Origin: Escherichia phage Killian
DNA length: 64,000 nt
Sequence record: OQ446694.1
Strand: one strand, 5' to 3'
Positions within the stretch are counted from its first letter, which is position 1, and every line of letters begins with the position of its first letter. Shown here piece after piece: positions 6,795 through 50,079 of this stretch. Below the pieces are notes generated by a model. The model had not been told where the DNA came from. It worked only from the letters and a program-made list of their open reading frames with translations, and ran no database searches. The translations under genes were made by a program, and so were the position numbers.

Positions 6795-6835
6795 TAGTTG
6801 TATAGTACCACGGAAGAACAGGGATGTAAATAGTT
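6795..6835 (-). promoter_or_regulatory. T4-type early promoter cassette (-35 GTTTACA, 17 nt spacer, -10 TACTAT)
   Basis: reverse complement reads GTTTACATCCCTGTTCTTCCGTGGTACTATAC with A-rich upstream region. Confidence 0.6.
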
Positions 6836-6918
6836 TTGTGAAAAAATTTTTAATGAATTTACAGGACCTAGAATCATCTATTTTTCTTAAGTATAGATTT
6901 ATATTACTTGTATGAAAA

Positions 6919-6936
6919 AGGGACCCGGAGGTCCCT
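6919..6936 (-). terminator. stable hairpin downstream of gene 43
   Basis: AGGGACC-CGGA-GGTCCCT inverted repeat. Confidence 0.45.
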
Positions 6937-6948
6937 AGATTTATTCTA

Positions 6949-9645
6949 TCAGCCAAACAGGAAGTCTAACGAAGCTTTTTCTTCATAGTCCATACCCGCC
7001 GATTCACACATGCCCGCAAGCGGTTTAACAAACGATTTTTGGAACAAAGTTGAGTAGTCAATCCAAGACAGTACATCAGAACGAATTTCTTTTGGAAGTT
7101 CTGTGCCTGATGGCCAAGCAATGCACTTGTCACCAAATGGATTTCCTTCACGTAATGGAAGAACCATTACCTTATTTCCATCCAAAATTGGAGCTACACC
7201 TAAACCGCTAACAGCTCGACGATAAGTTAGCACACCACGAATATGGAACGGACATTTAAATCCTGGCCAACCTTTATCATCATATTTCGCTATATCGTTC
7301 GCAGTTTTTACTTCAGCAATAACTTTATAGTCAAGTTGACGATATTCTTTCTCAAAGTTCTTGTAGTATTCTTGGACAGACTCTTCGCCTTCCTGAAGAA
7401 TACGACGAATACTTTCTTCGAGAGCTTCTTGTACTGCTTTTGGTGTTGAACTCTGCTGAGTTTCCATACCCATGATTTTTAGATGTGGTTCAGCAAATCG
7501 CTTATCTTCCATATCATAAACGTTCAGAGCATAACGTTTTTTCGCTTTCCAAAATCCACCAACACCCTTTGAACCAAGCGGAGGACAAGAAATAGCTTCA
7601 CGGTCCATATGCATCAGATGCTCGCGGTTATTCATATAATCACATAACTCACGATATGCAACATCAATCATAGGTTCCATCTTTTTCTTACCAAACTGAT
7701 TCATGAATTCAACTAAATCATTTTGTTCTTTAAAGCGATCAAGACCTACTTTTTCAATTACTTTATCTACACAAACATATACCGAATCAGTATCACCTGC
7801 TGCGATGAAATCTTCACCATTAGTTCCACACACTTTATTTAGATATTCATTAATTTTGCGAGCAATCCACTGAATACCGACTTGACCGAAAATTGTGATA
7901 GCAGTAGCATTTCGCAAATCATAGTAGCGGAAATGAATATTACCAAGAGCACCATAAAGACTGTTAATAAGAATTTTACGGTTCAGCTGATTTGTGTTAG
8001 CAAGTGTAGCAGCTTTTTCACATTCTTCAATCAGACTGTTAAGAACAGATTCGGTGTAATTCGATAATTCGTTTAAGAAATCATCATTGAACTTAACATA
8101 TCGTTCAACTTCCGGTTTAGTTGAACAAGACCCTGCACCTTTCATAATAATCTTTTTAATAGCTTCGGCATTCATTTCTTCAGCGAACATTTTCTTTTTC
8201 CAATCTTTACGCTGGAAAAATACTTTAGCGATTTCCTTTGGAATGATACCTTCTTGATGCTTATCATACATCCATCCATTCGGAGAACAAGAATATTCAT
8301 CACTTGGCTTAGGAGCTGTTCCTGCGATATATTCATGAATTGGATGAACTTTAAATTGCCCGCGAATAGTCTCAGGACTAATGTTAACCTGACGAATAAT
8401 GCTAGGATACAGAGACGTCAAGTCAAAACTCATAATGTATCGACGAGCAATCGGTTTAGGTTCAAACACAAATGCACCTGGAAAACTCTGTTTAACGTGC
8501 GAACCTTGTTGAGGAATAACCTTATGTTCACCTTTCAGTGAGTTAAAAATAATAGCATCCCAAGTTTTAATAGGACTCATTACACCAGAAAAAGGCATTT
8601 TAGCGTAATAAGACATACTTAAAACTAGATCGATAAACCCACGAATTTTATCAATTGCTTGAACTGATTCTACGTCAATGATGTTATAACTAATGTATCG
8701 TTGATGATTAGTCTCACGAAGTTTATTAATAGGACCATCGTACGGCAATTTACCTTTTTTGGTTTCATGTTGAGCAACTGATTCCAAAGAGAACGATGGC
8801 AAATTAGTAAATGCGAATTTCTTGTACAAATCTAAATAATCAAGAATAGATACGCCATCAATAGAATAAATTTCTTTACTACCGTACATATTTTGAATTA
8901 GTTTAGATTTTACTCGACCGATTGGAGAGAAACGTTTCATACTACGTTCACCGAGAACCATTTTAACACGATTCATGATATACGGAACGTCAAATCCCTC
9001 AATATTCCAACCAGTAAAAATAGCAGGTCGTTTCTGTTCCCAGAGATTAATATATTCCATGAGCATATCACGCTCATTATCAAATGGCATATAAATTACT
9101 CGGTCAAGAATTTCTTGAGGAACTTCATCACCACCTTCACAGTCAAGCTTAGCAGCTAACTTTGCGTCCCATTTTGATACTGAACCGTACATTGAATTCA
9201 ACAAATCAAAGACGTAAAAACGATCGTCAATTGAATCATAATGAGTGATAGCATCAATTTCATATTCTGCTTTCATTGGGTCAGGAAATTTATCACCAGT
9301 AACCTCAATGTCACAGTTAGCTACACGAACAAATTTTCGGTCATAAACAATTTCTGAACCATATGTATCACTGATATAAGCGAGTTTAAAATCGTTCATA
9401 CCGAGAGCTTCGAGACCAATGTCTTCCATTCGTTTCATCCAGTCTCGTGCATCTTTCATTGATGGAAATTTTTGAGGAGCACAATTTTTACCATAAATGT
9501 CTTTGTATTTTGACTCTTCCTTACAATGCCTAAACATAGTCGGAAGATATTCTACTTCACGGGTACGTTCCTTTCCATTTTCATCAATATAACGTTCAAC
9601 AATATTATTTCCGACTGTTTCGATAGAGATATAAAATTCTTTCAT
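6949..9645 (-). CDS. 43: DNA polymerase gp43 (family B)
   Basis: 898 aa; exo and pol motifs including YGDTDS; T4 length. Confidence 0.97.
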   Translation of the reverse strand: MKEFYISIETVGNNIVERYIDENGKERTREVEYLPTMFRHCKEESKYKDIYGKNCAPQKFPSMKDARDWMKRMEDIGLEALGMNDFKLAYISDTYGSEIVYDRKFVRVANCDIEVTGDKFPDPMKAEYEIDAITHYDSIDDRFYVFDLLNSMYGSVSKWDAKLAAKLDCEGGDEVPQEILDRVIYMPFDNERDMLMEYINLWEQKRPAIFTGWNIEGFDVPYIMNRVKMVLGERSMKRFSPIGRVKSKLIQNMYGSKEIYSIDGVSILDYLDLYKKFAFTNLPSFSLESVAQHETKKGKLPYDGPINKLRETNHQRYISYNIIDVESVQAIDKIRGFIDLVLSMSYYAKMPFSGVMSPIKTWDAIIFNSLKGEHKVIPQQGSHVKQSFPGAFVFEPKPIARRYIMSFDLTSLYPSIIRQVNISPETIRGQFKVHPIHEYIAGTAPKPSDEYSCSPNGWMYDKHQEGIIPKEIAKVFFQRKDWKKKMFAEEMNAEAIKKIIMKGAGSCSTKPEVERYVKFNDDFLNELSNYTESVLNSLIEECEKAATLANTNQLNRKILINSLYGALGNIHFRYYDLRNATAITIFGQVGIQWIARKINEYLNKVCGTNGEDFIAAGDTDSVYVCVDKVIEKVGLDRFKEQNDLVEFMNQFGKKKMEPMIDVAYRELCDYMNNREHLMHMDREAISCPPLGSKGVGGFWKAKKRYALNVYDMEDKRFAEPHLKIMGMETQQSSTPKAVQEALEESIRRILQEGEESVQEYYKNFEKEYRQLDYKVIAEVKTANDIAKYDDKGWPGFKCPFHIRGVLTYRRAVSGLGVAPILDGNKVMVLPLREGNPFGDKCIAWPSGTELPKEIRSDVLSWIDYSTLFQKSFVKPLAGMCESAGMDYEEKASLDFLFG

Positions 9646-9703
9646 AGATATTCCTTAGTTTATAGCCCGAGTTATTAGGCTCTTGATATATTATACTCCA
9701 AAT

Positions 9704-9721
9704 AAGGGGCCGAAGCCCCTT
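9704..9721 (-). terminator. C(UUCG)G tetraloop hairpin between 43 and regA
   Basis: GGGGC-CGAA-GCCCC on plus, giving UUCG loop in minus-strand RNA. Confidence 0.5.
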
Positions 9722-9723
9722 GC

Positions 9724-10092
9724 TTAATTACCAATCGTATATTTTGGAACGAGTTTCCATTCATGTTTTTGTTTAAAAGAAATAACTCGGAAGTTATTGG
9801 TTAAATCTTTCATAAAAGTTCTTTGACCAGGAACGATTTCAATCAGTCCCCAATCTTCTAACAGCCACGCAATCGAATCACGACGAACTTCATCTTCTTC
9901 TGTCATTTCAACCTGACGGCCATCCATACGAAGCATTTCTTTAAAATGAACGATATAGTATAGTCCTTTTTTCTGAAGAATATGACAGGACTGATACAGA
10001 ACTTTATCTTTATTATTAGCAATTCCCATACGAGTCAAGGTTTCTTTTACTTTCAGAAAATCTTCAGGTTTTTTAAGAGTAATTTCAATCAT
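9724..10092 (-). CDS. regA: RegA translational repressor
   Basis: 122 aa; T4 position between 43 and 62. Confidence 0.9.
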   Translation of the reverse strand: MIEITLKKPEDFLKVKETLTRMGIANNKDKVLYQSCHILQKKGLYYIVHFKEMLRMDGRQVEMTEEDEVRRDSIAWLLEDWGLIEIVPGQRTFMKDLTNNFRVISFKQKHEWKLVPKYTIGN

Positions 10093-10093
10093 T

Positions 10094-10657
10094 TTACCAT
10101 TCCAATGCTAGTTTTTTGAGTTGTTTCTGTTCTTTTACATTCTTAGTCACTTCTTTCAAAAAATCATCCGTGACTAAACCTTTTAGTTCTTTTAATACTA
10201 AAGGAAGTTTTCCATTTTTAGCAAGAATTGATTTATAGTTAATTGCATCATTTGTATTAACTTGATACCGCTTAGCAAGTAACTTAATAATCAATACTTC
10301 AGTAGAATCTTCAACCAGTTTTGCCCATTTACCATATCTTTTACCCCGAGGAACAGCAGCCATCAGATAATTAAAATGGGCTTCATCGCTTAAACCTGAT
10401 CCAATTAAATTCATAGCATATACAGCTGGCATGCACTCAGGAAATTGTGATAATGCATTCTCAACCATGTATTTTGAATAATCTTTTTGAGCAATAGAGC
10501 ATTTAGTTTTATTATTAATAGCTCCAATTATTTCAAAAAATTCATTTTCAGCTTTTTCCTTAAAAGAATCAGCAGCAGATTGGACAGCTGTCCAATCTTT
10601 TGAATACCAAGCAACTTGATGCTCGTTTAATTGAATATCATCTTCAAATAAGCTCAT
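10094..10657 (-). CDS. 62: clamp loader small subunit gp62
   Basis: 187 aa; T4 length and position. Confidence 0.9.
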
Positions 10658-10658
10658 A

Positions 10659-11633
10659 TCACTTCCACTGCATTTCGCATGCTAATTGAATGAAAAGATA
10701 TGCTAAATGTAATTCAGTATTAGCCGCAATTCCGTGATACTGGTTATTTTCACCAACAATTTCATACATACGAATAATACTTTGTGGAGTTACGCGTGTA
10801 TAGATTTCTTCGGCAAGTTTACCTACGAACCACGAATAATCAGCTGCATATTTTGGTGCTAAAGCTCTGAGCTGTTTAACATCTTTATTTTTGAGAGATT
10901 CAAGAACATCATCAATAGCACCACGATCGTTAGTAACCAGTGATAAAATACCAGCATCCAAAACACCTTTAGATGAATAACTATCGAGCTCACCAATAGT
11001 TTTACGAAAATCAGGAAAATTCTTTTTAACCAAAGCTGCTACAACTTTCATATCAGCTATAGCAATTCCTTCATGCTTACAGATTTCAGTCAATCGACGA
11101 ATCATCTGCTTCATCATTTCAATTTTATCTTCATCGGTCGGCTGACCGAACGTAATAACTCGGCAGCGTGACTGAAGCGGTTTAATAATACCATCAATAT
11201 TGTTAGCAGTAATAATAATACTACAGTTTGAACTATAAGCTTCCATAAAGGAACGAAGATGTCGCTGAGACTCTGCTAACCCTGAACGGTCAAATTCATC
11301 AATAACGATTACTTTTTGACGACCATCAAATGAAGCTGCACTAGCAAAATTAGTCAAAGGACCACGAACGAAATCAATTTTACAGTCTGATCCATTCACA
11401 AACATCATATCAGCATTTACATCATGACACAATGCTTTTGCTACAGTTGTTTTACCTGTTCCTGGAGAAGGAGAATGAAGAATAATATGTGGAATTTTAC
11501 CTTTACTTGTAATAGATTTAAAGGTTTCTTTATCAAAGGCGGGAAGAATACATTCATCGATAGTAGATGGACGATATTTCTGTTCAAGAATGTGTTCTTT
11601 TTCATTTACAGTAATCATAATTTCCTCATTCAA
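10659..11633 (-). CDS. 44: clamp loader ATPase gp44 (RFC-like AAA+)
   Basis: 324 aa; Walker [10 protein letters not shown]; arginine finger region. Confidence 0.95.
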
Positions 11634-11649
11634 GTTTTAGTGTAAATTT

Positions 11650-11666
11650 AAGGGCCGAAGCCCTTT
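11650..11666 (-). terminator. C(UUCG)G tetraloop hairpin between 45 and 44
   Basis: AGGGC-CGAA-GCCCT followed by T-rich run. Confidence 0.5.
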
Positions 11667-11667
11667 A

Positions 11668-12354
11668 TTAAAAATCGTGGGTAGAATCAGCTTCAAGAGC
11701 TACTACATAATTCGCGTGTTCACCTTCAAATTTAGCAGCACCTTGTTTACCTTTTGCCCAGAGCAGAAGTTTATAATTTCCTGGTTGCATTTTCATATTT
11801 GCCATATTGATAATGAAATTAAATGTATTTTCACCATCATAATCACCAAGAGTCAAAGAATATTTAACACGGGTCAAAGCAGAATCTTCTACTTTATTAA
11901 AACCGTTAATTACGATTTTACCTTCTTTTACTGTGATAGCAATTGTATCAATCTGCAGACCGCGAGATACACGCAACAGCTGTTGAAGGTCTTCAGCTTT
12001 AATTTCGGTAACAACAGATGCTACCGGGAATGGAATTGGTTTATTAGGAGCAACTACTGTACTCGGATCGGCTGCTGGCCAAAAAATTGTTGAACGAGCA
12101 TCAGCAATTTTAATATTTCCATCTTCTGACTGGGAAATTTCTGCATCGTCATTAACTAGAGACAGAATACCGAGAAAACCGTTCAAATCGTAAATTGCTA
12201 CATCAAAATCAATAGTGTCAGAAATATTTGCTTCCGCATAAGTTGTACCATTAACTGCGCGAGTCATAATAAATTGACCAGATTTAAGCATAATACCAGA
12301 ATTAATAGTAGCGAAATTTTTAAGCAGAGCAGTAGTATCTTTAGACAGTTTCAT
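11668..12354 (-). CDS. 45: sliding clamp gp45
   Basis: 228 aa; T4 length and position. Confidence 0.95.
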   Translation of the reverse strand: MKLSKDTTALLKNFATINSGIMLKSGQFIMTRAVNGTTYAEANISDTIDFDVAIYDLNGFLGILSLVNDDAEISQSEDGNIKIADARSTIFWPAADPSTVVAPNKPIPFPVASVVTEIKAEDLQQLLRVSRGLQIDTIAITVKEGKIVINGFNKVEDSALTRVKYSLTLGDYDGENTFNFIINMANMKMQPGNYKLLLWAKGKQGAAKFEGEHANYVVALEADSTHDF

Positions 12355-12379
12355 GTAATTTCCTTCAATTCAAATGAGA

Positions 12380-12410
12380 TTTAATTTTATAACTAATTTA
12401 ATAAAGCAAT
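12380..12410 (-). promoter_or_regulatory. candidate MotA-dependent middle promoter for gene 45
   Basis: TGCTTTA MotA-box-like element upstream of a TAAAAT -10. Confidence 0.3.
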
Positions 12411-12799
12411 TAACGATTAAAATCGGCAGCAATTGTTTCCGCAACAATTTGAGCAGCAACAATTAGACGTTCATCTGCATTACCGCAATAATCATCTTCA
12501 AGGCGTTCACCACATGAAGTCATAATAAATTTAGCACCAGCATTTAAAGATTCTGTCGTATGTTTGCGCATTAGTTCAATCCATTTATTACTTACTTCAC
12601 GATCGATAGCTTCATAATACGCATGACGAGCAGGTGCAGATTTAATTTTGCTCTGAATAACTTCCATCGCGTTATCAGAAAGAGACAAAACCCATGCTCG
12701 ACGAATTTTATTTTGGTTTTGTGGATTTGATTCAGAACGCACGTGTTTTGGCTGAATATCTTTTACATCAACAGTATAATTCACAGTAATTTTAGTCAT
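12410..12799 (-). CDS. rpbA: RpbA RNA polymerase-binding protein
   Basis: 129 aa; T4 position between 45 and 46. Confidence 0.8.
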
Positions 12800-12808
12800 A
12801 ATACACCT

Positions 12809-12997
12809 TTAGTCATAATAATCAGTAACAGTCCAAGCTTCATTTCTGTTGGACATTATTTTCGTATATTCTGCTTTAAATGCATTCTTAAGCATAGATT
12901 CAGTAACTATATGCTCTTCATTAGAAAAATTATTTCTCAGAATATATCGTTTTATTTCAGGAATAGTTAATAGATGCTGTCCAGTTGAATATTCCAT
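12809..12997 (-). CDS. hypothetical small protein (45.2-like)
   Basis: 62 aa ORF in early operon. Confidence 0.4.
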   Translation of the reverse strand: MEYSTGQHLLTIPEIKRYILRNNFSNEEHIVTESMLKNAFKAEYTKIMSNRNEAWTVTDYYD

Positions 12998-13052
12998 GTT
13001 TTTCCTCCATAGAGATTATACTCTAATAAATTAAAGCATAATCTCTTATAAA

Positions 13053-14735
13053 TTAAACCATTACAGTAAATCGACCAACTTTCTTCATTTGAAGATGCTG
13101 ACCATATGCTTGCGGGTCGTGGTCTCTATGTGAAATAACAAAAACATTAGTATTTTTTAAACTATCTAAAATAGTTGAAATAGCTTTTACACCTTCAACA
13201 TCAGTTGCTGAATCAAAAACTTCATCGAGAATTAGTGTGTTTATTTTAACACCTGAAACTTTTTCAGCAATATCACGCCAAGTAAATAGAAGAGCAATAT
13301 CAATTCGTGCTTTTTCGCCTTGACTGAATGAAGCATAACTAAAATCTTCACGACCACGGGATTTAATTGTCTCATTAAATTCTTCATCTAATGTAAACAC
13401 ATAATCCGCTTCCATTATTTTAAGATAATGGTTAATCTGCTTATTAAATAATGGAATGTACTTTTTAATAATAGCACCTTTAATACCAGAATCTTTGAGC
13501 ATATCAGTCAAAATTCCTCTGTGGTATTTTTCCATTACTAAATTAGTTTTTGTCTTAACAATTTTATCAAGTTCTTCTTGAAGCAGTGCTATTTCATCAG
13601 CATGGTCAATAAACTCGGATGATGCTTTTTCTATAGCCGCTTTAACCTTTTTAGCTTTATCTACCGTCGTGATTAGAGATTGCTTTTTATTGCGAATATC
13701 ATTCGCCAACGTCTGCTGGGTTTTAATATTATCTCGGTATTCATCAACGAGAACTTTTAAATTATCACGATGTGTTGAAAGCTGTTCAAACGAATGCGTG
13801 CATTCAGAAACTTTATCTTTAATTTTAGAAACAACTTTATCACCGGAACTTAATTGTGACAAACAGGTTGGACATAATCCACCTTCGTGATACATATTAA
13901 TGACTTTATTATACGAGTCAATTTTTGATTTAATTAAAAATGCTTCTTGACCGATTTTATTAAATGCATCAGTCGGGTCTTCATCCAAAACAATATTAAC
14001 TAATCTTTCATTAGCTTCTTCTATTTCCGATTTTAACGTTCTAGCTTCTTTCGCCAAATCATCATACATATTCTGCAGACGAGTAAGGTTATCACCAGTT
14101 AATTTTTTCTGACGTTCAACGTTATCATTATATATTTTAATTTGCTGGATAATACTATCTTTTTTAACATCAAGCACTTGGTTTTGTGAATTTAATTCAC
14201 GTATTAGTGCTTTATTAAGCTTATCCATTTCAGCTAATGTTCCTACCTCAAGCAGGTCTTCCACAAGCTTTCTTCGCGCAGGGGTCGACAAACCCATGAA
14301 AGGGGTATACCCTGCTGTACCAAGGACAACAATCTGCTTGAAACTGGCATATGACATTCCGATAAGCTGTTCAAATTCTGCTTGGAAATCTTTACTGCTG
14401 GCAGATTCATTAAGACGTGTACCGTTAACGGTGATTTCGAAAACGTTTGGTTTTTGTCCTCTTTTGATATAGTACTTTTTCTCATCATATTCCATCCACA
14501 ATTCAACTAAAAGTTCTTTCTTATTTGTGCTGTTTATTAATTGACCTTTCTTTACATCACGAAATGGCTTGCCAAAAAGCCCAAATGTGATGGCTTCTAA
14601 CATAGTAGACTTACCACCGCCATTTCGTCCAGTAATAAGAGTTTTTTGAACCTTATCTAGTTGAATGTCAATAGGATTTCCACCTACTGACATTATATTT
14701 TGATACCTAACTCGGTTTAGTTTAAAATTCTTCAC
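13053..14735 (-). CDS. 46: recombination nuclease subunit gp46 (Rad50/SbcC-like ATPase)
   Basis: 560 aa; Walker A GRNGGGKST; coiled coil with CPTC zinc hook; Walker B LILDE. Confidence 0.95.
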   Translation of the reverse strand: MKNFKLNRVRYQNIMSVGGNPIDIQLDKVQKTLITGRNGGGKSTMLEAITFGLFGKPFRDVKKGQLINSTNKKELLVELWMEYDEKKYYIKRGQKPNVFEITVNGTRLNESASSKDFQAEFEQLIGMSYASFKQIVVLGTAGYTPFMGLSTPARRKLVEDLLEVGTLAEMDKLNKALIRELNSQNQVLDVKKDSIIQQIKIYNDNVERQKKLTGDNLTRLQNMYDDLAKEARTLKSEIEEANERLVNIVLDEDPTDAFNKIGQEAFLIKSKIDSYNKVINMYHEGGLCPTCLSQLSSGDKVVSKIKDKVSECTHSFEQLSTHRDNLKVLVDEYRDNIKTQQTLANDIRNKKQSLITTVDKAKKVKAAIEKASSEFIDHADEIALLQEELDKIVKTKTNLVMEKYHRGILTDMLKDSGIKGAIIKKYIPLFNKQINHYLKIMEADYVFTLDEEFNETIKSRGREDFSYASFSQGEKARIDIALLFTWRDIAEKVSGVKINTLILDEVFDSATDVEGVKAISTILDSLKNTNVFVISHRDHDPQAYGQHLQMKKVGRFTVMV

Positions 14736-14995
14736 AAAAGATTCCTTTTAATGTATCTTTTAGACCATTCTATCATATCATCATAATCTAAAAAGTATTC
14801 ATCAAATTCAGCCATGCAAACAACACCTTGTGCTGCTTTTGATGTGATATAAATTATTCCAACATATCTAGAATCTTCTTCGGTGTATTCAATATTTGCT
14901 ATGAATTCATCGTTAATGTCAAATGTCGAAAACTTCACAATATGCATCCTTAATACAAGATACAGCCATATCTTGTAATGATTTAGGTGTGTCAT
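14732..14995 (-). CDS. hypothetical protein (46.1-like)
   Basis: 87 aa ORF. Confidence 0.45.
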   Translation of the reverse strand: MTHLNHYKIWLYLVLRMHIVKFSTFDINDEFIANIEYTEEDSRYVGIIYITSKAAQGVVCMAEFDEYFLDYDDMIEWSKRYIKRNLL

Positions 14996-15182
14996 TATCT
15001 AAAATGTTGAAGTTAAAAGATACAGCCCAGTCAGTGCAGACCGTAACCTTTTTAATACAATTATCTTCAACCTCTAGCGGTTCAAACCAATATTCAATAA
15101 TTTCTTTATGCCCAATATCATCTTTTACTTCGCATTCAAAATGCTGACTCATCATAACATTTTTAAATTCATCAAAAGTCAT
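14919..15182 (-). CDS. hypothetical protein (46.2-like)
   Basis: 87 aa ORF. Confidence 0.45.
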   Translation of the reverse strand: MTFDEFKNVMMSQHFECEVKDDIGHKEIIEYWFEPLEVEDNCIKKVTVCTDWAVSFNFNILDNDTPKSLQDMAVSCIKDAYCEVFDI

Positions 15183-16198
15183 TGTGTTGCCTCTACATAT
15201 AACTGATTTGCATATTGAATAAGTGCTTCGCGGTCAGAATCAGTGATGTCTGGAATTGCATTAATGTATTCTTCCATCAATGTCTGAAGAGATTGAACTT
15301 CAACTTCTTCACTATCATCTGACTCAACAGAGTTATCAATCTTTGACACAACTCGTAATGAATGCACAACTTTTTCTAGTTCAGATTCGAACTTCGTCAG
15401 ATTTTTGTCTACCTCAGTTACTATAACACGTACTGATAGATTTGTAAAATCTTTATAGTCAATTTTTCCCTTAAATGGATATTGAATTCGACGATGCCAG
15501 GTAGTGTTGTTTGGAATAAATTCCATTCGTTCTGTTTCTGTATCAAACATCCAGAACCCACGAGGGTCATTCTCGTCACCTGCAGTTAGTGTCCATGGTG
15601 TCCCAATATATCTGACGTTAGCAGCCTCAGAGATAGTATGGAAGTGACCAGACCACACTTCTTTATAAGTCTTAAGGAAATCAGGTTCAAGACCGTGAGA
15701 TTTCATTCCTTTATAAAAATAAAATCCATTCAGTTCCCAGTGACCAACACAAAAAGAAGCAGATGAAGTTTTGATGTGTTCAAGAATTTCACCAGTATTT
15801 TCTTCACACATCCAAGGAATTAAATCAATCAAACATCCGTCAAAATCTACTGTAGTAGGCTTATCATATACTTTAACATTAGGATATTTAGCCAAAAGCT
15901 CAGTAGAAGCATTTGGATGCATTACATTTTTGTAGTGGAGATCGTGATTTCCTACAATAGTATGTAATGTGATTCCAGCGTCATCAAGCATTTGAACTAT
16001 TTCACGGGCAAACTCCATAGTTTTATGCGTGATCGCTTTTCGTACATCAAAAATATCACCGTATTGAATCCATACAGTAATTCCATTTTTCTTAGAATAT
16101 TCTATCGCTTGCTTAATTCCGTCAAGTTGAATACCGCGAATCCATTCATCATCAGCTTTAACGCCTAAATGCCAATCACCCAAGTTTAGTATTTTCAT
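15179..16198 (-). CDS. 47: recombination nuclease subunit gp47 (Mre11/SbcD-like)
   Basis: 339 aa; phosphoesterase motifs DWHLG, GDIFD, GNHD. Confidence 0.95.
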   Translation of the reverse strand: MKILNLGDWHLGVKADDEWIRGIQLDGIKQAIEYSKKNGITVWIQYGDIFDVRKAITHKTMEFAREIVQMLDDAGITLHTIVGNHDLHYKNVMHPNASTELLAKYPNVKVYDKPTTVDFDGCLIDLIPWMCEENTGEILEHIKTSSASFCVGHWELNGFYFYKGMKSHGLEPDFLKTYKEVWSGHFHTISEAANVRYIGTPWTLTAGDENDPRGFWMFDTETERMEFIPNNTTWHRRIQYPFKGKIDYKDFTNLSVRVIVTEVDKNLTKFESELEKVVHSLRVVSKIDNSVESDDSEEVEVQSLQTLMEEYINAIPDITDSDREALIQYANQLYVEATQ

Positions 16199-16799
16199 GG
16201 TGTCTTTTCCATCCTAATTTAGCTGCTTTTGAAACTAGTTCTTTAATTTTTCCTTTTGTCCATTCAGGACCAGGAGGTTCATGACATAACATTTGCTTAA
16301 CTCCGTTATTATACCATTTTTTACCTTTATTATGTGATGAAGCTTTAAATTTATTTGACCTTCCTTTTACATAACCTTCTGGAATATACGGCAAAAAGGC
16401 AGATTTTCCTGTTAATGGGTCATGTGAATGTATATTTCCTTTACAATTATGAGAACCATATAATGGATGATTTTGTCCTTTAATATCTCTTCCAAATGAA
16501 CCTTTTGGAGCAGCATATGACATATTAAAGAATAATGGATTTTTAACCGCATCATGCAAACGTTGATAATATAGCTCGCATTTAATAGCTTCTTCGCGCG
16601 TATCAAATTCATCTAAAATGCATGAATCAAATAAATGTGGGTTATCTGAAAGTTCTTCATTATAAATTTTCTTATACTTTTTAGATAAAACTGATCCATG
16701 ATATCCGGCTAAATGCCTATCTAAAGATGTAGATCCAATATAAAAAGGAGGAAGTTTATCTCCACTATATATTGTTAAATAAGTTATATATTTTTTCAT
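16176..16799 (-). CDS. freestanding homing endonuclease, GIY-YIG-like with NUMOD-type repeats
   Basis: 207 aa; N-terminal IY...YIG motif; repeated NHPLYG-type motifs; inserted between 47 and a-gt, overlapping the 47 start. Confidence 0.55.
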   Translation of the reverse strand: MKKYITYLTIYSGDKLPPFYIGSTSLDRHLAGYHGSVLSKKYKKIYNEELSDNPHLFDSCILDEFDTREEAIKCELYYQRLHDAVKNPLFFNMSYAAPKGSFGRDIKGQNHPLYGSHNCKGNIHSHDPLTGKSAFLPYIPEGYVKGRSNKFKASSHNKGKKWYNNGVKQMLCHEPPGPEWTKGKIKELVSKAAKLGWKRHHENTKLG

Positions 16800-16802
16800 A
16801 TA

Positions 16803-16936
16803 TCAAGAACCGTCATTGAAATGCAAAATAAAATTATTGAAATAAATCCATCTGGAGTGCTAAAGAACCCAATCCAACACGCTCTAGTAAATAGATAAAA
16901 CGCTAGAAAAAGTATCACATATCCAAGAAATATCAT
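16803..16936 (-). CDS. small hydrophobic peptide
   Basis: 44 aa minus ORF below track threshold, read by hand. Confidence 0.25.
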
Positions 16937-16960
16937 TATATCAAACTCCGTATAAAGCTA

Positions 16961-16977
16961 AAGGGCCGAAGCCCTTT
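16961..16977 (-). terminator. C(UUCG)G tetraloop hairpin upstream of a-gt
   Basis: AGGGC-CGAA-GCCCT. Confidence 0.45.
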
Positions 16978-18178: not shown

Positions 18179-18230
18179 TTAATATCCTCATTGTTTTGGT
18201 TTATTTTACCAAAAATTTATAAAGCAATAT

Positions 18231-38532: not shown

Positions 38533-38536
38533 AATG

Positions 38537-39213: not shown

Positions 39214-39225
39214 AAAGGCCTCCTA

Positions 39226-39438
39226 TCATTTTTGTCCTGTATTTACTTTATGCCGATGCACGGCCTTAACTTTATCAAGGTATTTTTCAAAATTTCGCAA
39301 TCTAGTATAGTCTGCCGGAGATTGGTTGAGTGATACTTCTCGACGCAAAGCTGAAATGATATTTCCAACTTCCCTACGAATTTCATCTAATTGAAGAACA
39401 GTAAGATTGCGAAGTTGCTTTTCAGTTAATTGTAGCAT
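39226..39438 (-). CDS. hypothetical small protein
   Basis: 70 aa ORF. Confidence 0.4.
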
Positions 39439-39480
39439 ATATACCCCTTTAGTTAGATAAACCTATTTATAACTTTTGCA

Positions 39481-40062
39481 CTAACCGAGCTTTTTAGTTA
39501 ATTCATTCCAATGTTTTCTGCACAAAGAAACATAAATTTCATCACCAATACAGATTTGATTACCTTCTTTAACTGGTGTTCCATCTTCCATTAATCGAGC
39601 CGTCATAATCGCTTTTTTACCGCAATGACAAACTGCCTTTAGTTCAATAAGTTTATCTGCAATCGCCAAAAGTTCTTTAGAACCTTCAAATAATTTTCCG
39701 GCGAAATCAGTCCTTAGACCATAAGCCATAACAGGAACATTATATGTATCAACAATTCGACTTAATTGATGCACCTGTCCAGTTTTTAAAAACTGGGCTT
39801 CATCTACAAATACACAATGAATATCTTTTTGTGCTTCAGCCCATTTATAGAACTCAAAAATATCCATATCATCCGTAATAATATTCGCTTCCTGCTTAAT
39901 TCCAATACGAGAAACGACTTCACAGACAGAATCGCGAGTATCAATAGCAGGCTTAAGAACTAATACACCCATTCCACGTTCTTTATAATTATGCGCAGCA
40001 GTCAAAAGAGAAGCAGATTTTCCAGCATTCATTGCTGCATAAGTAAAAATTAAACTCGCCAT
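39481..40062 (-). CDS. tk: thymidine kinase
   Basis: 193 aa; P-loop AMNAGKS; C-terminal Zn cysteines; T4 length. Confidence 0.9.
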   Translation of the reverse strand: MASLIFTYAAMNAGKSASLLTAAHNYKERGMGVLVLKPAIDTRDSVCEVVSRIGIKQEANIITDDMDIFEFYKWAEAQKDIHCVFVDEAQFLKTGQVHQLSRIVDTYNVPVMAYGLRTDFAGKLFEGSKELLAIADKLIELKAVCHCGKKAIMTARLMEDGTPVKEGNQICIGDEIYVSLCRKHWNELTKKLG

Positions 40063-40071
40063 ATCACCTTC

Positions 40072-40257
40072 TTAAAGCGTATTCACATAAGCTATTAATT
40101 CGTTTTCTTTCTTATCAAACCGATCAGCAAATTCTTCTTGTTGATCGGGAGATAGCGGGCCGTATTCATCATAAAAGGTGTTTGCTTCTGTATGCTCATC
40201 TAGAAGTTCATGGATAAGCTCAAACAATTTATCTTTTTGTTCTTTACTCAGACTCAT
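40072..40257 (-). CDS. hypothetical small acidic protein (tk.1-like)
   Basis: 61 aa ORF. Confidence 0.45.
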   Translation of the reverse strand: MSLSKEQKDKLFELIHELLDEHTEANTFYDEYGPLSPDQQEEFADRFDKKENELIAYVNTL

Positions 40258-40427
40258 ATATTAATTTCCAGGAGTTTTAAAATAATTCGCTTTTGCTTAA
40301 ATATTTCCATAGTTAAATGACCAGTATCTTTTTGACCGATTCCAATGGCAAAACCTTTATTGACAGCGAGTTCAATTAAATTATCAAGCTCACGTAACAC
40401 TTCATATTGTAACTCAAAACTATTCAT
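40254..40427 (-). CDS. hypothetical small protein
   Basis: 57 aa ORF read by hand; ATGA start/stop overlaps on both sides. Confidence 0.35.
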   Translation of the reverse strand: MNSFELQYEVLRELDNLIELAVNKGFAIGIGQKDTGHLTMEIFKQKRIILKLLEINI

Positions 40428-40636
40428 TTCGGTTTACCTTCTTTAACGAAATCGGGATAAGGATAAAATCCTGAATAAAATCCTTCACCTTTATGATTGA
40501 TGCATCCTTTATTAGAACAATAGCACCAATAATCGAAATCACAAGCCATTTCATCATTACATAAAGCAAAAACAACTGGCCATTCACACTTTTCGCAGTG
40601 GGCATTTTTAAGAATACTTGTTTGGCTCATAACCAT
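40424..40636 (-). CDS. Cys-rich small protein (putative Zn-binding)
   Basis: track ORF 40424..40651 trimmed; CEKCEW...CYCSNKGC cysteines. Confidence 0.4.
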   Translation of the reverse strand: MVMSQTSILKNAHCEKCEWPVVFALCNDEMACDFDYWCYCSNKGCINHKGEGFYSGFYPYPDFVKEGKPK

Positions 40637-40839
40637 GTAACCTTTAAACAATATTCTTCTACGTGTTGTTTACGACCTTTCTTATCAATAAAGTTATATT
40701 CAACGAATGTTCCAATATAGTCTTTATCTACACCATGTGGACTATTAATTGGGCATTTAGTACGGCAAATGCGTTCCCATTGACGAATAATTTCCACTTT
40801 GTTTTTAGGATCAAACGGATGCGGGTAATGTACTTTCAT
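40627..40839 (-). CDS. hypothetical small protein
   Basis: 70 aa ORF. Confidence 0.4.
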   Translation of the reverse strand: MKVHYPHPFDPKNKVEIIRQWERICRTKCPINSPHGVDKDYIGTFVEYNFIDKKGRKQHVEEYCLKVTWL

Positions 40840-41290
40840 AATCCACCACTATTAAATCAATATCAGGAGTAAACATGTCGATTAATTTAGAAACCTTATC
40901 CCAATCGCCGCCAGCAATACCGCAACCTATACGTGGAATGTAAATTACTGGTTTAAACAAAAGGGTTTCTGCCTGTAGATTTAATTCTATCATGCAGTTT
41001 ACTAAAGCACCATAATCAAGATTAGGACCCGGTTCGTATTGTGTATACAGGTTATAGCATATACTAAATCCCGTAGGACTATGTTTAAAAACAATAGACA
41101 TATCGCCTAATTTATCACGAGAACCGTACTCGGTAGTGGTTTTATCTATTTCTAAAATTTTGGGATAGGCTCTTGCTAATTGACCCGCTACGCCAGAGCC
41201 CATTGTGTGGAAGCAATTGCACCCGTGCGCAATAATATTACCTTGAAGAAATAGGGCGACAATATCGCCCTTGATATATTTTACAATCAT
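40811..41290 (-). CDS. macro domain protein (ADP-ribose binding/processing family)
   Basis: 159 aa; GCNCFHTMGSGVAGQ resembles the macro-domain nucleotide-binding signature. Confidence 0.6.
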   Translation of the reverse strand: MIVKYIKGDIVALFLQGNIIAHGCNCFHTMGSGVAGQLARAYPKILEIDKTTTEYGSRDKLGDMSIVFKHSPTGFSICYNLYTQYEPGPNLDYGALVNCMIELNLQAETLLFKPVIYIPRIGCGIAGGDWDKVSKLIDMFTPDIDLIVVDYESTLPASV

Positions 41291-41634
41291 CTAGTACTCA
41301 ATCCTCGATTATAAGAATCTACTAAACGGTCAACCATTGAATGACAAGCGGCTTTATCTTTCTCCTCCGCAACTGAACATTCTAAGGTATTCCACTTTTT
41401 AGCATATCGTTTTAACAATGTATCATTTTTGTATCTGCTTGATTTATCTCTTTCTCCGTCTTTATATGCATATATTAATTTCTGCGCAAATTCAGCTTGG
41501 CATGCTTTATTTTTCCCACAATAATCCGCGGCAGTACGGTTTACATACTCTCTAATTTCAGTATATGATGTATCTGCTAACGCAGAAGCAGAAAATGAAA
41601 TTAATCCTATACATAAAACCAAAATTTTAGTCAT
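41287..41634 (-). CDS. vs: Vs valyl-tRNA synthetase modifier-like protein, with signal peptide
   Basis: 115 aa (T4 Vs length as recalled); position between tk.x and regB. Confidence 0.5.
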   Translation of the reverse strand: MTKILVLCIGLISFSASALADTSYTEIREYVNRTAADYCGKNKACQAEFAQKLIYAYKDGERDKSSRYKNDTLLKRYAKKWNTLECSVAEEKDKAACHSMVDRLVDSYNRGLSTR

Positions 41635-42172
41635 TTACTATTTCCAAAAGTTTATTATTTTTAAGGTAATTAGCCTTTTCTAGGACTTCAGAAGCATATT
41701 TAGAACCTGCTTTAACATTCCATCCCGAATTATAAGAGGATATTGCTTTTCTTATATCGCCCTTATGTATATTTAACCAATAAGAAAGTTCAATGTACGC
41801 CCAGGAAGCTGAATTGGACCGTTTATTCAACATTCTTTTTATTTCAGCATCGGTCATATTATAACCAAGTTCCTTAACTCTCGCTCGCATAGTAGGCAAA
41901 TAATTTTGGAACATTCCATAGGCATGATGCTTTGGTTTAGATTTTAAATTAACTCCGGCAGAGCTTTCTTGCCACAAAATAGCAGCCATTATATGACCTA
42001 ATCCGCTCTTGTGGATATTTTTGTGTGTTTTATATTTTCCATCCTTAGAAAATTGTTCCCCGAATTGATATGCGTAACGCATGTTATCGAGTTGGACATT
42101 ACTGAAAGTATGCTCGGAGCTATGCGCCATCATTGAAATGGCCAATAGACCAGCGAGTAGTGCTTTTCTCAT
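41627..42172 (-). CDS. secreted lytic transglycosylase-like protein (vs.1-like)
   Basis: 181 aa; signal peptide; ILWQESSAG and SYNSG motifs typical of SLT domains. Confidence 0.55.
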   Translation of the reverse strand: MRKALLAGLLAISMMAHSSEHTFSNVQLDNMRYAYQFGEQFSKDGKYKTHKNIHKSGLGHIMAAILWQESSAGVNLKSKPKHHAYGMFQNYLPTMRARVKELGYNMTDAEIKRMLNKRSNSASWAYIELSYWLNIHKGDIRKAISSYNSGWNVKAGSKYASEVLEKANYLKNNKLLEIVND

Positions 42173-42179
42173 GCTTACC

Positions 42180-42641
42180 TCATTGAGTTTTAATTACTGC
42201 TTTAGAAGCCTTTCCTGGTAAACGACGACTGTTAATAATTGCCATCCTACATTGAAGTGACGGGTCTTTGAACTTCGCATTAGGTTTACAAACTGTAAAT
42301 CCAAGCCAAAGATTTCCATCTGTGATTTCTAAACGTCCAGGACGGTATTCAACCCCATCAATAAAATCCTCATCAATGTCAGGCCGCGGAGGCATACTCA
42401 GGAATTCATTAACTTCTAAAACATGGTCTTTTATTTTGTGGAATAATTCAAAAACATATGTCTCATCAATCTCCCGCTGAATTGCACGATCAAGAAGATG
42501 CTGAGAATATTTTAGATGAAACGATGAGACTCCTGCTGCTTTTGATGCCTCACGAATCTCATTGTTAATTTGACGAAACTCCGACTCAAAATGACGACGG
42601 AGTTTATTTCGACGGATAAAAACTTCTGTGTTGATAGTCAT
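42180..42641 (-). CDS. regB: RegB site-specific endoribonuclease
   Basis: 153 aa, MTINTEVFIRRNKLRRHF...; T4 length and position. Confidence 0.7.
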   Translation of the reverse strand: MTINTEVFIRRNKLRRHFESEFRQINNEIREASKAAGVSSFHLKYSQHLLDRAIQREIDETYVFELFHKIKDHVLEVNEFLSMPPRPDIDEDFIDGVEYRPGRLEITDGNLWLGFTVCKPNAKFKDPSLQCRMAIINSRRLPGKASKAVIKTQ

Positions 42642-42666
42642 GTTATTCTCCTCTTAACTGATAGAA

Positions 42667-42700
42667 AAATTATACCACAGTCAAGAGGAAAAGTAAACAG
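42667..42700 (-). promoter_or_regulatory. T4-type early promoter upstream of regB
   Basis: -35 GTTTAC, -10 TATAAT. Confidence 0.5.
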
Positions 42701-45282: not shown

Positions 45283-45317
45283 AATATACTATCACAATTC
45301 TAGGAGAAAATAAACTG
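45283..45317 (-). promoter_or_regulatory. early promoter upstream of denV
   Basis: -35 GTTTATT, -10 AGTATA. Confidence 0.4.
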
Positions 45318-45620
45318 TTATTTACCTTTAATTACTTTAGCTGCTTCGATAGCCGCTTGCTGAAGGTCATCCATAGACATACCGAATTTAGAAGCAAAGT
45401 TATCAATTTTCTTTTCGACAGCATTCAAAGGCTTGGCCTGTTTACCTTCATTAGCGCCAGGAAGAGCGAGAATACGCTCTTTGTCAATATAAAGGCTTAC
45501 AAGTTTCTTACGGTCTTTATCGGACAAATCGTGAAATGAATGGGCCTTTTTATTTATAGCGGCTTCTAATTTACCTGCACTCACTCGCGCTTCAGTAATA
45601 AATTCTTGATATGTTTTCAT
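45318..45620 (-). CDS. ipII: internal protein (IPII-like) with capsid-targeting N-terminus
   Basis: 100 aa; MKTYQEFITEA N-terminus matching the IP capsid-targeting/prohead-protease cleavage consensus. Confidence 0.6.
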   Translation of the reverse strand: MKTYQEFITEARVSAGKLEAAINKKAHSFHDLSDKDRKKLVSLYIDKERILALPGANEGKQAKPLNAVEKKIDNFASKFGMSMDDLQQAAIEAAKVIKGK

Positions 45621-45651
45621 ATGTTTCCTTTAAATATTTTAATTAGTAATT

Positions 45652-45690
45652 GTGAATATATTATCGCAGTTTTAGGAGAAAATAAACAAC
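45652..45690 (-). promoter_or_regulatory. early promoter upstream of IPII-like gene
   Basis: -35 GTTTATT and -10-like element, same architecture as at 45283. Confidence 0.4.
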
Positions 45691-49111: not shown

Positions 49112-49153
49112 AGTATTTCCTTAAGTTGATTAAAAATAAAATCTGTGAAAGAA

Positions 49154-49684
49154 TTATATCATACTATTTAAGAGATGTAAACTATTTTTAATTTTACAAA
49201 TTCGTTCAGCTTCTTCAACAGCGGCGGCGATAATGCTTTTAGCTATAGGAGTATTAATACTAGTAGCTTTTACACTTAACACGATTTCTTTATCTTTACT
49301 AGGCCAACCCCACGATTTTTCACCATGAGTGCCTTTAATTACAGCAGACACCTCAAGTGAGCATCCATTATCACATGTTTTTACATTAACAACCCAAGGG
49401 TCACTTTTCTCAACCGGTTTATCAATCGGTTTATCCCAGTAAATATTAAGAATACGTGGGACATCAAATTTAGCAGGGCAAATCTTAACCGTAAGACCTT
49501 CGCTTTCTAGCCAATTAATAAGAGGGCGTTCATACATGCGGCGATGTGGGCTTCGGACTCGACAAGCCTTGTGCCCATTGCTTGCGGCTTCACTAAGCTG
49601 TTCTAATACCTGCTTTTGCATTATTGATAAGATACCATCAAAAGATTTTTCGGAAGTTTCATTCAGTTCTGTATAAAGAGACAT
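49154..49684 (-). CDS. hypothetical protein
   Basis: 176 aa ORF. Confidence 0.45.
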   Translation of the reverse strand: MSLYTELNETSEKSFDGILSIMQKQVLEQLSEAASNGHKACRVRSPHRRMYERPLINWLESEGLTVKICPAKFDVPRILNIYWDKPIDKPVEKSDPWVVNVKTCDNGCSLEVSAVIKGTHGEKSWGWPSKDKEIVLSVKATSINTPIAKSIIAAAVEEAERICKIKNSLHLLNSMI

Positions 49685-49707
49685 AACGGTTTCCTCAAGT
49701 TACAGGC

Positions 49708-49741
49708 TCATAATATCTCAATCATGAGCCTGTGTAAACTT
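49708..49741 (-). promoter_or_regulatory. early promoter overlapping a hairpin
   Basis: -35 GTTTACA, -10 ATATTAT; embedded in inverted repeat CAGGCTCAT...ATGAGCCTG. Confidence 0.4.
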
Positions 49742-50003
49742 ATTTCATATTATTAAAATATTCTTCTGCGATTTCGTCGTTATCATGGTAAACTTTAGAA
49801 GACAGTTTAACATAACCTTCAGCAGTGAACATGTTAATCACAACATTTACAGTATACCACTGACCATCTTCATTACCCATTACTGCGTAAGTTTCAAACA
49901 TCGGATGATCAGGACCGATAACTTTAATATCATTCACTGTACGACCGAAATCTTCTGAAACGCATTTCATAAAGAAGTTGAACAGTTCGCCGTAATTATC
50001 CAT
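49740..50003 (-). CDS. hypothetical protein
   Basis: track ORF 49740..50057 trimmed: MVLYNYQL prefix is the promoter -10 region; MDNYGELF is the probable start. Confidence 0.4.
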   Translation of the reverse strand: MDNYGELFNFFMKCVSEDFGRTVNDIKVIGPDHPMFETYAVMGNEDGQWYTVNVVINMFTAEGYVKLSSKVYHDNDEIAEEYFNNMK

Positions 50004-50041
50004 TTCATTCTCCAAGTTGTTTTTCTGTATCAGTAGTTGAT

Positions 50042-50079
50042 AGTTGTATAGTACCATGGAAGAACAGGGATGTAAACAG
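50042..50079 (-). promoter_or_regulatory. T4-type early promoter cassette
   Basis: near-identical to the cassette at 6795 including the spacer. Confidence 0.6.

Follow-up and report, generated by a model that had tools for sequence, protein, structure and literature searches.

The 64,000-nucleotide (nt) stretch of Escherichia phage Killian analyzed here (sequence record OQ446694.1; referred to as the window) carries two families of short repeats that a first-pass annotation had described as near-identical early-promoter cassettes. These cassettes are very probably T4-like early promoters with their leaders, reused as portable homology for the exchange of accessory genes. Observed directly were the sequence features of the cassettes, their occurrence in excess of chance, and where the junctions lie at which gene content changes. 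The finding is correct and already known: nothing in it lies outside published descriptions, and even this genomic region has been published.

Both repeat families are present where the first-pass annotation placed them, at coordinates that had been given 6 to 8 nt too high. Family A, GGTACTATACAACTATCAACT[G/A], has four minus-strand copies, 6788-6809, 32944-32965, 34863-34884, and 50034-50055, with 0 to 1 mismatches (chance expectation, 0.00 matches in 100 shuffles). Family B, which is TTGATAGGGTAATAGTATCAC on the plus strand, occurs at 34388-34408, 54654-54674, 54952-54972, and 55282-55302 with 0 to 2 mismatches (chance expectation, 0.01 matches). Family B belongs to the minus strand as well, where it reads GTGATACTATTACCCTATCAA, so that the two families are one kind of object on one strand. 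In every copy, [G/A]TTTAC sits 18 nt upstream of TACTAT, which is conventionally written as TTTACA, 17 nt, and TACTAT. Copies are named here by the first base of this −35 hexamer, which is A instead of G at 6831 and 55322. The spacers of copies 6831 and 50077, described earlier as almost identical, indeed agree at 17/18 positions, and 6789-6860 is 92% identical to 50035-50106 over 72 nt. A repeat finder independently grouped the same sites and also aligned 54950-55020 with 55280-55350 at 89% identity; the spacers of copies 54992 and 55322 agree at 14/18 positions.

The eight copies belong to a wider class of promoter-like sites. A generic σ70 scan for TTGACA/TATAAT was non-discriminating in this AT-rich DNA (96 sites versus 80.9 expected in 30 to 50 kb), and a T4-specific pattern was therefore adopted. 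GTTTAC-N18-TANNAT matched 15 times, always on the minus strand, versus 0.28 matches expected, and none of 100 shuffles reached 15. A looser scan (GTTTAC with ≤1 mismatch, 17 to 19 nt, TAnnAT) returned approximately 19 credible early-promoter sites; they are confined to intergenic positions on the minus strand, have GGAG and then an ATG downstream in every case, and comprise the eight family A and B copies (two with ATTTAC) and 11 further sites. The column consensus of the aligned class is ...Aaaa.attt.a.AaA.tt GTTTAC ... TGTGa TAcTAT, with TGTG ahead of the −10 hexamer, an A/T tract that matches an UP element, and ...CTATCAA... conserved around the predicted start. The alignment of the eight copies shows AAAATnATTTCACAAA, with TGn extending the −10 hexamer and, at about −40 to −60, an UP element rich in A/T. 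The discriminator and start region after the −10 hexamer is of two types, ACAACT-ATCAAC or TACCCT-ATCAA. Read along the minus strand, the unit consists of the UP element, GTTTAC(A), a 17-nt spacer ending in TGn, TA(C/T)TAT, the start region, a GGAG leader, and the ATG, and a Shine-Dalgarno (SD) sequence, GGAG or GGAA, lies 5 to 9 nt ahead of the ATG in 8/8 copies.

When the same scan was applied to T4, all 19 class members were found to have an orthologue at the corresponding position, often base-for-base identical. The matching T4 promoters span 20109 to 73939, are co-oriented, and lie upstream of prereplicative genes. T4 early promoters are UP/−35/TGn/−10 promoters with extra consensus regions (Hinton 2010, PMC2988021), and GTTTAC occupies −36 to −31 in them (Nolan et al. 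2006, T4-like phage comparison, PMC1524935). By sequence definition and T4 orthology, the cassettes are therefore assigned to the T4-type early promoters. They share the architecture, strand, and positions of the T4 promoters, are often identical to them over 50 to 90 nt, and do not differ from them in kind. Unlike in T4, two of the window promoters are followed by other genes, orf85 (6510-6767) and orf49 plus a gene with a domain of unknown function, DUF4031 (34432-34841), which are inserted behind them, and patches of spacer sequence differ.

The likeness among copies extends beyond the promoter hexamers. The −35, TGn, and −10 positions were masked and the remaining 56 columns (25 upstream, 15 spacer, and 16 downstream) were compared. 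The masked mean pairwise identity was 0.39 among the 19 promoters versus 0.27 for random pairs from the window. Against a column-shuffle null that keeps the consensus of each column and breaks the pairings, seven promoter pairs exceeded the 99.9th percentile of 0.589: 50077/6831 (0.89; spacer, 0.93), 55322/54992 (0.84), 50077/32987 (0.64), 34906/6831 (0.64), 50077/34906 (0.62), 45687/45315 (0.62), and 54992/34428 (0.61). The similarity thus does not fall to the level of independent σ70 promoters once the hexamers are masked, the outcome that the first-pass annotation had named as fatal to its claim. Part of the likeness is known functional consensus, and specific pairs share sequence that function does not require.

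The genomic setting allows gene content to be compared at these sites. The window belongs to a Tequatrovirus; its nearest relatives are EcNP1 and vB_EcoM_Nami, with 98% identity across the whole query in a megablast search with 30000-38000, which matched 784 phage records, nearly all of them Escherichia or Shigella T4-like phages. Many Tequatrovirus genomes are 95 to 98% identical to the window, and phage UGKSEcP2 is 100% identical to a 561-nt piece of it. By blastn, about 19.5 to 83.2 kb of T4 (AF158101) is colinear with the window at 84 to 98% identity. The minus strand carries nearly all window genes up to about 58.7 kb and corresponds to the prereplicative arm of T4, which starts at gene 41 and reaches 57A/1/3/2/4, with the nrdC, tk, vs, and e clusters and the tRNAs in between. 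Approximately 20 insertions, deletions, or replacements (indels) break this colinearity.

The comparison with T4 and with relatives from IMG/VR, which had been proposed as a check, places indel junctions inside cassettes. In total, 11/40 indel junction ends versus T4 lie in cassettes, which cover 4.7% of the region, where 1.9 would be expected (about 6-fold; binomial P = 2e-6); this enrichment is overstated, since the null is uniform and viable indels must end near gene boundaries. Both ends lie in cassettes in 5/20 indels, a number that is still above expectation given that such promoters stand at only about 17% of gene starts. One of the five is a 458-bp insertion that brings orf49 and the DUF4031 gene between nrdC.11 and nrdC.10, with a shared 21-bp SD-ATG overlap. 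In another, T4 e.7 is replaced by a gene of 176 amino acids between promoters 49739 and 49182, with junctions at 49128 and 49682. T4 ipIII has been lost, with a 90-bp overlap at the junction, and the two remaining events are at the ipI locus, where the left junction of the ipI replacement is at 54674.

Similar junctions were found among 37 relatives from IMG/VR (labelled L003, L004, etc.). The gap between nrdC.11 and nrdC.10 ranges from 102 to 2274 bp in the 34/37 relatives where it was measurable, and these gaps hold up to five promoter-pattern matches each, most of them at least one. The nrdC.10 genes of the window, L003, L004, and L006 are 99 to 100% identical, yet three different promoter cores stand upstream, and the homology around nrdC.10 (L003, L004, L006, and T4) breaks off sharply at GGAGAATAAAATG, that is, at the SD sequence. 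In the window and L005, core B adjoins the end of the DUF4031 gene; in L022, L025, and L026, this gene end adjoins another core, which stands behind a different upstream gene in L021 and L023. Because one flank joins two cores and one core joins two flanks, the break is placed at GTTTAC, the −35 hexamer. An exact search with the family A 21-mer found 22 copies in a handful of T4-like genomes, ahead of at least eight different genes, and an identical module from −35 to SD precedes both nrdC.8 and an unrelated gene (L076). Phages also differ in the promoter downstream of gene 43, one spacer half of which is e.8-like in some and nrdC.8-like in others, whether or not orf85 follows. Copies 6831 and 50077 are near-identical here and less so in T4 because of these swapped spacer alleles behind gene 43.

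By analogy with experiments on RB49 and phi1, we infer both the attenuation by stem-loops and the recombination events that would connect these observations. Host σ70 RNA polymerase would fire from the cassettes immediately after infection, as sequence and T4 orthology suggest, and an internal stem or an upstream terminator would partly insulate each unit from upstream transcription. Copies of the same 40 to 95 nt are found repeatedly in a single orientation, and less than 50 bp of homology suffices for T4-type recombination, which is very active, so that the units could serve as portable homology. When two units undergo unequal exchange, the intervening small genes would be deleted, inserted, or replaced, and a working promoter-SD-ATG joint would remain. 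The same exchanges would homogenize promoter pairs, which may account for the near-identical spacers of 6831/50077 and 54992/55322.

In many of the promoters, the spacer forms the left arm of an inverted repeat, and the right arm is located immediately past the −10 hexamer or contains it. Such a stem-loop is present in about half of the units, with the −10 hexamer or the start region as the 3′ arm and, in two cases, the SD sequence. Cognate arms are more complementary than non-cognate ones both in the window (−11.2 versus −7.9 kcal/mol; permutation p < 5e-5) and among 119 distinct promoters from 38 genomes (−9.26 versus −6.70 kcal/mol; p < 5e-5), where −12 kcal/mol or lower is reached by 27% of cognate and 5% of non-cognate arms. 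An internal hairpin that overlaps the −10 hexamer was detected in 5/8 family copies (z scores from −1.8 to −6.4). These include 4/4 family B copies (z −4.0 at 34428, −1.8 at 54694, −3.0 at 54992, and −2.2 at 55322), with a minimum free energy (MFE) of −19.6 kcal/mol at 34428, where the −10 hexamer is in the 3′ arm, and −16.4 kcal/mol at 54694. The nrdC.8 cassette (32987) has a 15-bp stem-loop at 32977-32933 whose 5′ arm is the promoter spacer and whose 3′ arm covers the SD sequence GGAGG (MFE −25.5 kcal/mol, z −6.4; 0/200 shuffles fold as well). At the regB promoter 42698 (42640-42698), the 3′ arm of a −22.4 kcal/mol hairpin likewise lies over the SD sequence, and its 5′ arm is upstream of the predicted start. 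Strong hairpins spanning the −10 hexamer are present at 1094, 37687, and 42698, and the hairpin at 49739 reaches −23.4 kcal/mol. Such inverted repeats were considered as a new feature and rejected as one, since Arbiol et al. (2010, PMC2839356) already list stem-loops of this kind.

No T run follows the internal stems, which makes classical intrinsic termination by them doubtful; at copies 6831 and 34906, a UUCG-type terminator lies 40 to 80 nt upstream and ends gene 43 and nrdC.11, respectively. Action on the sense RNA was considered because window folds summed to −261 kcal/mol in the sense and −187 kcal/mol in the antisense direction, and stems that tolerate G-U pairs were much longer than Watson-Crick stems. 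This claim was dropped when the asymmetry disappeared in the 119 promoters (−9.26 versus −9.06 kcal/mol; sense favored in 63/119). The idea that T4-type and window-type sequences of the nrdC.8 stem differ in a compensatory way was likewise rejected, as the differences, judged by eye, merely fray the end of the stem. A literature search on T4 transcript-end mapping or hairpins at early promoters returned nothing relevant, and an Rfam scan of the window reported seven tRNAs only, with no match at the cassettes.

One tentative idea, which we consider rather unlikely, is that the stem-loop in a subset of cassettes, most clearly nrdC.8 and regB, acts as a sensor of transcript origin. Read-through RNA would fold the stem and thereby hide the ribosome-binding site or stall, and RNA begun at the embedded early promoter would lack the 5′ arm and be translated. 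Origin-dependent translation of this kind is known for e, soc, and I-TevI of T4: a hairpin masks the SD sequence when the RNA reads through, and a promoter located within the hairpin releases it. Those cases use late promoters, whereas nrdC.8 and regB in the window embed early ones, and the likeness is one of resemblance, read from sequence. If such a sensor exists, each shuffled gene would be expressed solely from its own promoter and solely in the early-promoter period, the joint travel of promoter and stem-loop would be explained, and the logic of late e, soc, and I-TevI expression would extend to early promoters.

Several points weigh against reading the cassettes as early promoters reused for gene exchange, beyond the uniform null behind the junction enrichment. 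No junction end lies in a cassette in 13/20 indels versus T4, and at least 9 of these 13 are gains or losses of homing endonucleases or introns: segA, mobB, mobC, the I-TevII intron, mobD, and segC of T4 are absent. The 260-bp orf85 insertion (6499-6760), whose right junction is at the ATG, has at its two boundaries (6499-6512 and 6760-6767) the identical 8 bases ATGAAAAT, with which orf85 and imm.1 both start, and 10 nt lie between the orf85 stop and the imm.1 ATG; its junction, with an overlap of only 8 bp, resembles start-codon microhomology more than cassette-to-cassette exchange. The stem-loop part of the first-pass description stands for all four family B copies and 32987 but fails inside the promoter for three of the four family A copies, which have no significant internal stem-loop (6831, z +0.36; 50077, z −0.48; 34906, z +0.98), and 50077 also has no obvious terminator upstream. 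The stem-loops may act at either the RNA or the DNA level, as the larger promoter set shows no strand asymmetry. The start sites and timing of the promoters are predictions taken from T4 orthology. Finally, much of the family-wide likeness, namely the UP element, TGn, and the start region, is what selection for very strong promoters gives without recombination.

This last point, together with the indels outside cassettes and the endonuclease and intron events among them, favors an explanation in which the likeness arose by independent selection for a maximally strong σ70 promoter and leader, and genes were shuffled by homing endonucleases or illegitimate recombination. The consensus covers just the functional elements (UP, GTTTAC, TGn, −10, and ATC start), as in other strong phage promoters (PMC2988021). 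Spacers have no known sequence requirement, however, and independent selection leaves their identity in the 6831/50077 and 54992/55322 pairs unaccounted for, as it does the seven pairs above the null, the sharp junctions at the SD and −35 sequences, the identical module before unrelated genes, and the 6-fold junction enrichment; we regard it as improbable. Still less probable is that the boxes past the −10 hexamer and the stem-loops are primarily operators, which would determine the early promoters that respond to ADP-ribosylated polymerase or those turned off within a few minutes, so that the recurrence reflects co-regulation. Alt stimulates a subset of T4 early promoters with no known basis in their sequence, early shut-off is not fully understood (PMC2988021, PMC3014915), and two clearly distinct box types are present; but the box is largely discriminator plus first transcribed bases, no candidate binding protein or experimental link was found, and co-regulation leaves the identical spacers and mosaic junctions unexplained. 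It is very unlikely that the cassettes are the ends of a dedicated mobile element or targets of a sequence-specific recombinase or endonuclease, with the stem-loop or the ACAACTATCAAC / TACCCTATCAA box as the recognition site. A helper protein that recognizes the stem-loop was raised as a possibility by Arbiol et al. (PMC2839356), and the conserved box past the −10 hexamer is longer than a start site strictly needs. Against this, the variable segments have no terminal inverted repeats or target duplications, the junctions vary in position (SD, ATG, −35, and −10 region), the stem sequences differ among copies and so offer no common binding sequence, and no integrase-like or transposase-like gene was present among the inserted open reading frames (ORFs) scanned.

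Early promoters reused as portable homology thus remain the preferred explanation, and the published model closest to it is that of promoter early stem-loop (PeSL) elements (Arbiol et al. 2010, for RB49/phi1, PMC2839356; Comeau et al. 2014, for PST/T4 and nt-1/KVP40, PMC4122927). The resemblance to cassettes proposed to mediate gene shuffling in T4-type phages is supported here by the promoter class, the stems and terminators, and the junctions, with the functions inferred. An AT-rich tract, an early promoter, a stem-loop, an SD sequence, and an ATG are common to PeSLs and the window units, as is a concentration in hyperplastic regions ahead of ORFans, and the T-even PeSL consensus TTTACW-N17-TAYWAT (PMC4122927) fits the window copies. 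PeSL junctions, like those in the window, fall inside the element, between the −10 hexamer and the ATG or near the AT-rich region. Five PeSL subclasses are distinguished by stem position, the commonest having the stem between the boxes or overlapping the −10 hexamer; G-T pairs occur, and overlap with the −35 hexamer is also listed (PMC2839356). PeSLs close to indels were figured at about 43, 47, 50, and 51 kb of PST (PMC4122927), and the PST record at these positions holds the 49/pin and nrdC.4-nrdC.10 genes, which is the region at 25 to 35 kb of the window. Termination by the stem-loop was shown experimentally only for RB49-type PeSLs, recombinant or deletion products with joints within cassettes have been demonstrated for RB49 and phi1 during infection, and the formation of mini-circles by exchange between neighboring elements is part of the PeSL concept (PMC2839356). 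Elements of the RB49/phi1 type have TTGACA-N17-TATAAT and polyG/polyC stems, whereas the window units have a GTTTAC −35 hexamer and weaker, AT-rich stems, and 3/8 copies have no internal stem; they are not sequence homologues of the RB49-type elements. T-even elements are analogues rather than homologues of RB49-type PeSLs in the wording of Arbiol et al. themselves (PMC2839356).

The internal-protein locus provides a second published parallel. Its polymorphism with such promoters was described by Repoila et al. (1994), as cited in PMC2839356 and PMC4122927. As far as these citing accounts describe the locus, the window matches it at 54634-55355, with two unrelated internal-protein genes that have near-identical early promoters and MKTFKEF starts and with junctions in the promoter and the targeting sequence; T4 has a single ipI, and the window gene pair differs from that of T4. 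The gene at 54695-54928 has the capsid-targeting start MKTFKEFIAE and matches phrog_8111 (internal virion protein), and the gene at 55005-55262 starts MKTFKEF... and matches phrog_3499 (internal head protein).

The cassettes and related features are listed in Table 1. The observation that they lie by uncharacterized genes was borne out: the genes downstream are small, have no Pfam hit or a DUF only, and are of "unknown function" in PHROG, with the exception of the two internal-protein genes. Copy 6831 precedes orf85, a membrane-type ORFan of 85 amino acids that is present in 317/524 matching phage records and absent from T4, PST, T2, and RB33. The T4 orthologue of copy 34906 drives nrdC.10 instead of the 49-amino-acid ORFan. 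A third promoter sub-family was also seen at 1057-1094, downstream of gene 41, and 37650-37687, in the mobD.2 region, with TATAGT as the −10 hexamer, on which a 13-bp stem closes; these sites are 87% alike over 38 nt, and both are kept in T4 (20612 and 57990).

Table 1. Early-promoter cassettes, associated terminators, and further class members in the window. Copies are named by the first base of the −35 hexamer; the T4 column gives the orthologous promoter and the T4 gene downstream of it.
Feature	Coordinates	Strand	Landmarks	Context	T4 promoter
Family A cassette 6831	6765..6860	minus	UP ~6856-6832; −35 ATTTAC 6831-6826; −10 TACTAT 6807-6802; SD GGAG 6777-6774; ATG 6767-6765	precedes orf85 (6510-6767)	27080 (imm.1)
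Terminator after gene 43	6915..6935	minus	GGGACC-TCCG-GGTCCC then T run	intrinsic; upstream of cassette 6831; gene 43 ORF ends 6949	
Family A cassette 32987	32927..33015	minus	−35 32987-32982; −10 32963-32958; ATG 32929-32927	precedes nrdC.8 orthologue	53943 (nrdC.8)
Family A cassette 34906	34839..34929	minus	−35 34906-34901; −10 34882-34877; real ATG 34841-34839	precedes 49-amino-acid ORFan (34692-34841)	55384 (nrdC.10)
Terminator after nrdC.11	34930..34955	minus	AGGGAGC-CTTCGG-GCTCCCT then T7; 8 pairs, 6 G-C	intrinsic; annotated terminator in JB75	
Family A cassette 50077	50001..50125	minus	−35 50077-50072; −10 50053-50048; ATG 50003-50001	precedes e.8 orthologue (49740-50003)	70696 (e.8)
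Family B cassette 34428	34360..34460	minus	−35 34428-34423; −10 34404-34399; ATG 34362-34360	precedes nrdC.10 orthologue (33394-34362)	
Family B cassette 54694	54634..54725	minus	−35 54694-54689; −10 54670-54665	precedes trna.4 orthologue (54451-54636)	73572 (trna.4)
Family B cassette 54992	54926..55025	minus	−35 54992-54987; −10 54968-54963	precedes internal-protein gene (54695-54928)	
Family B cassette 55322	55260..55355	minus	−35 ATTTAC 55322-55317; −10 55298-55293	precedes second internal-protein gene (55005-55262)	73939 (ipI)
Promoters 49739 and 49182	49153..49739	minus	−35 at 49739 and 49182	exactly bracket the 176-amino-acid gene (49154-49684) replacing T4 e.7	
Promoter pair 45315 and 45687	45286..45687	minus	−35 GTTTAT; 88% alike over 43 nt	upstream of ipII and e	
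Other class members	562..42698	minus	−35 G at 591, 1094, 21483, 30004, 37687, 38499, 42698 (regB); each delimited from −35 G to 29 nt downstream		all with T4 orthologues

The promoter sequence also misleads gene calling. According to the first-pass annotation, an in-frame ATG in the −10 region gives several downstream ORFs a false MVLYNYQL N terminus. The artifact is real and is confined to two ORFs, 34692-34886 and 49740-50057, with in-frame ATGs at 34886 and 50057 that derive from TGG-TACTAT preceded by A (ATGGTACTATACAACTATCAACT). The real starts are at 34841 and 50003, behind GGGG/GGAG, and are annotated so in EcNP1 and JB75 (EcNP1 gp053 and JB75_0172 for 34841). In the remaining two family A copies (6831 and 32987), GTG stands in place of the ATG and a TGA is reached before the gene. 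A separate in-frame ATG at 54940 adds a spurious MEIK to the internal-protein gene that starts at 54928. Annotators should be aware that an in-frame ATG or GTG in TGG-TACTAT yields spurious MVLYNYQL extensions when the longest ORF is called.

Hairpins of other kinds were noted in the window and its relatives. G/C hairpins with a UUCG loop (GGGGC-UUCG-GCCCC) follow genes on the minus strand at 9701-9727, 11646-11672, 16957-16983, 20597-20623, 48493-48519, and 38515-38532 and resemble the classic intercistronic CUUCGG terminator or stabilizer hairpins of T4. In the distant T4-like relatives L031, L034, L035 (about 9900-10000), L032, and L036, the promoter of the nrdC.10 orthologue has a G/C-rich hairpin with the −35 hexamer as its loop, followed by a T run, e.g., GCCCAGGCA-GTTTACAT-TGCCTGGGC-TTTT, so that a terminator is superimposed on the promoter.

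Further differences from T4 were recorded elsewhere in the window. Differences in homing endonucleases lie at 23.6-24.2, 37.9-38.7, 42.9-43.5, 44.8-45.9, 56.4-57.2, and 80.2-80.8 kb of T4, and endonuclease-like ORFs (weak GIY-YIG, NUMOD3, and weak HNH) occupy 16176-16799, 24495-25316, and 52533-53165 of the window. Of the two ORFs in place of mobD, one (36437-36958) is a y05I-like putative transcription factor (PF24449, PF24448). An ORF of 282 amino acids at 4127-4975, which matches the Pfam family TAGT (TET-associated glycosyltransferase, 1.3e-9), replaces T4 segA and β-glucosyltransferase, and the phage probably decorates hydroxymethylcytosine differently from T4. T4 49.3 is swapped for a 129-amino-acid ORF at 26769-27158 with DUF7205 and a sub-threshold match (0.0026) to the T7 gp5.9 RecBCD-inhibitor family. 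A 260-bp insertion at 19745-20006 within the 3′ end of the 55.1 orthologue, with no promoter cassette involved, yields an 89-amino-acid DUF7200 ORF (19751-20020) and a new 55.1 C terminus. Seven tRNA genes lie on the minus strand at 51245-52526 (Rfam), versus eight annotated in T4, and the cluster is broken up in another way than that of T4, with insertions at 52529-53146 and 53260-53785. An ORF of 187 amino acids and unknown function (50244-50807) lies between the e.8 promoter and the small-RNA region.

The value of the window is confirmatory, and it offers clean examples: the bracketed gene at 49154-49684, three cores before one identical gene, and one module before unrelated genes. Cassettes of this kind would explain how T4-like phages turn over accessory genes, such as those for internal proteins and anti-defense or host-takeover ORFans, without breaking their regulation. 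Turnover by this route would bear on the evolution of host range and on the engineering of therapeutic phages.

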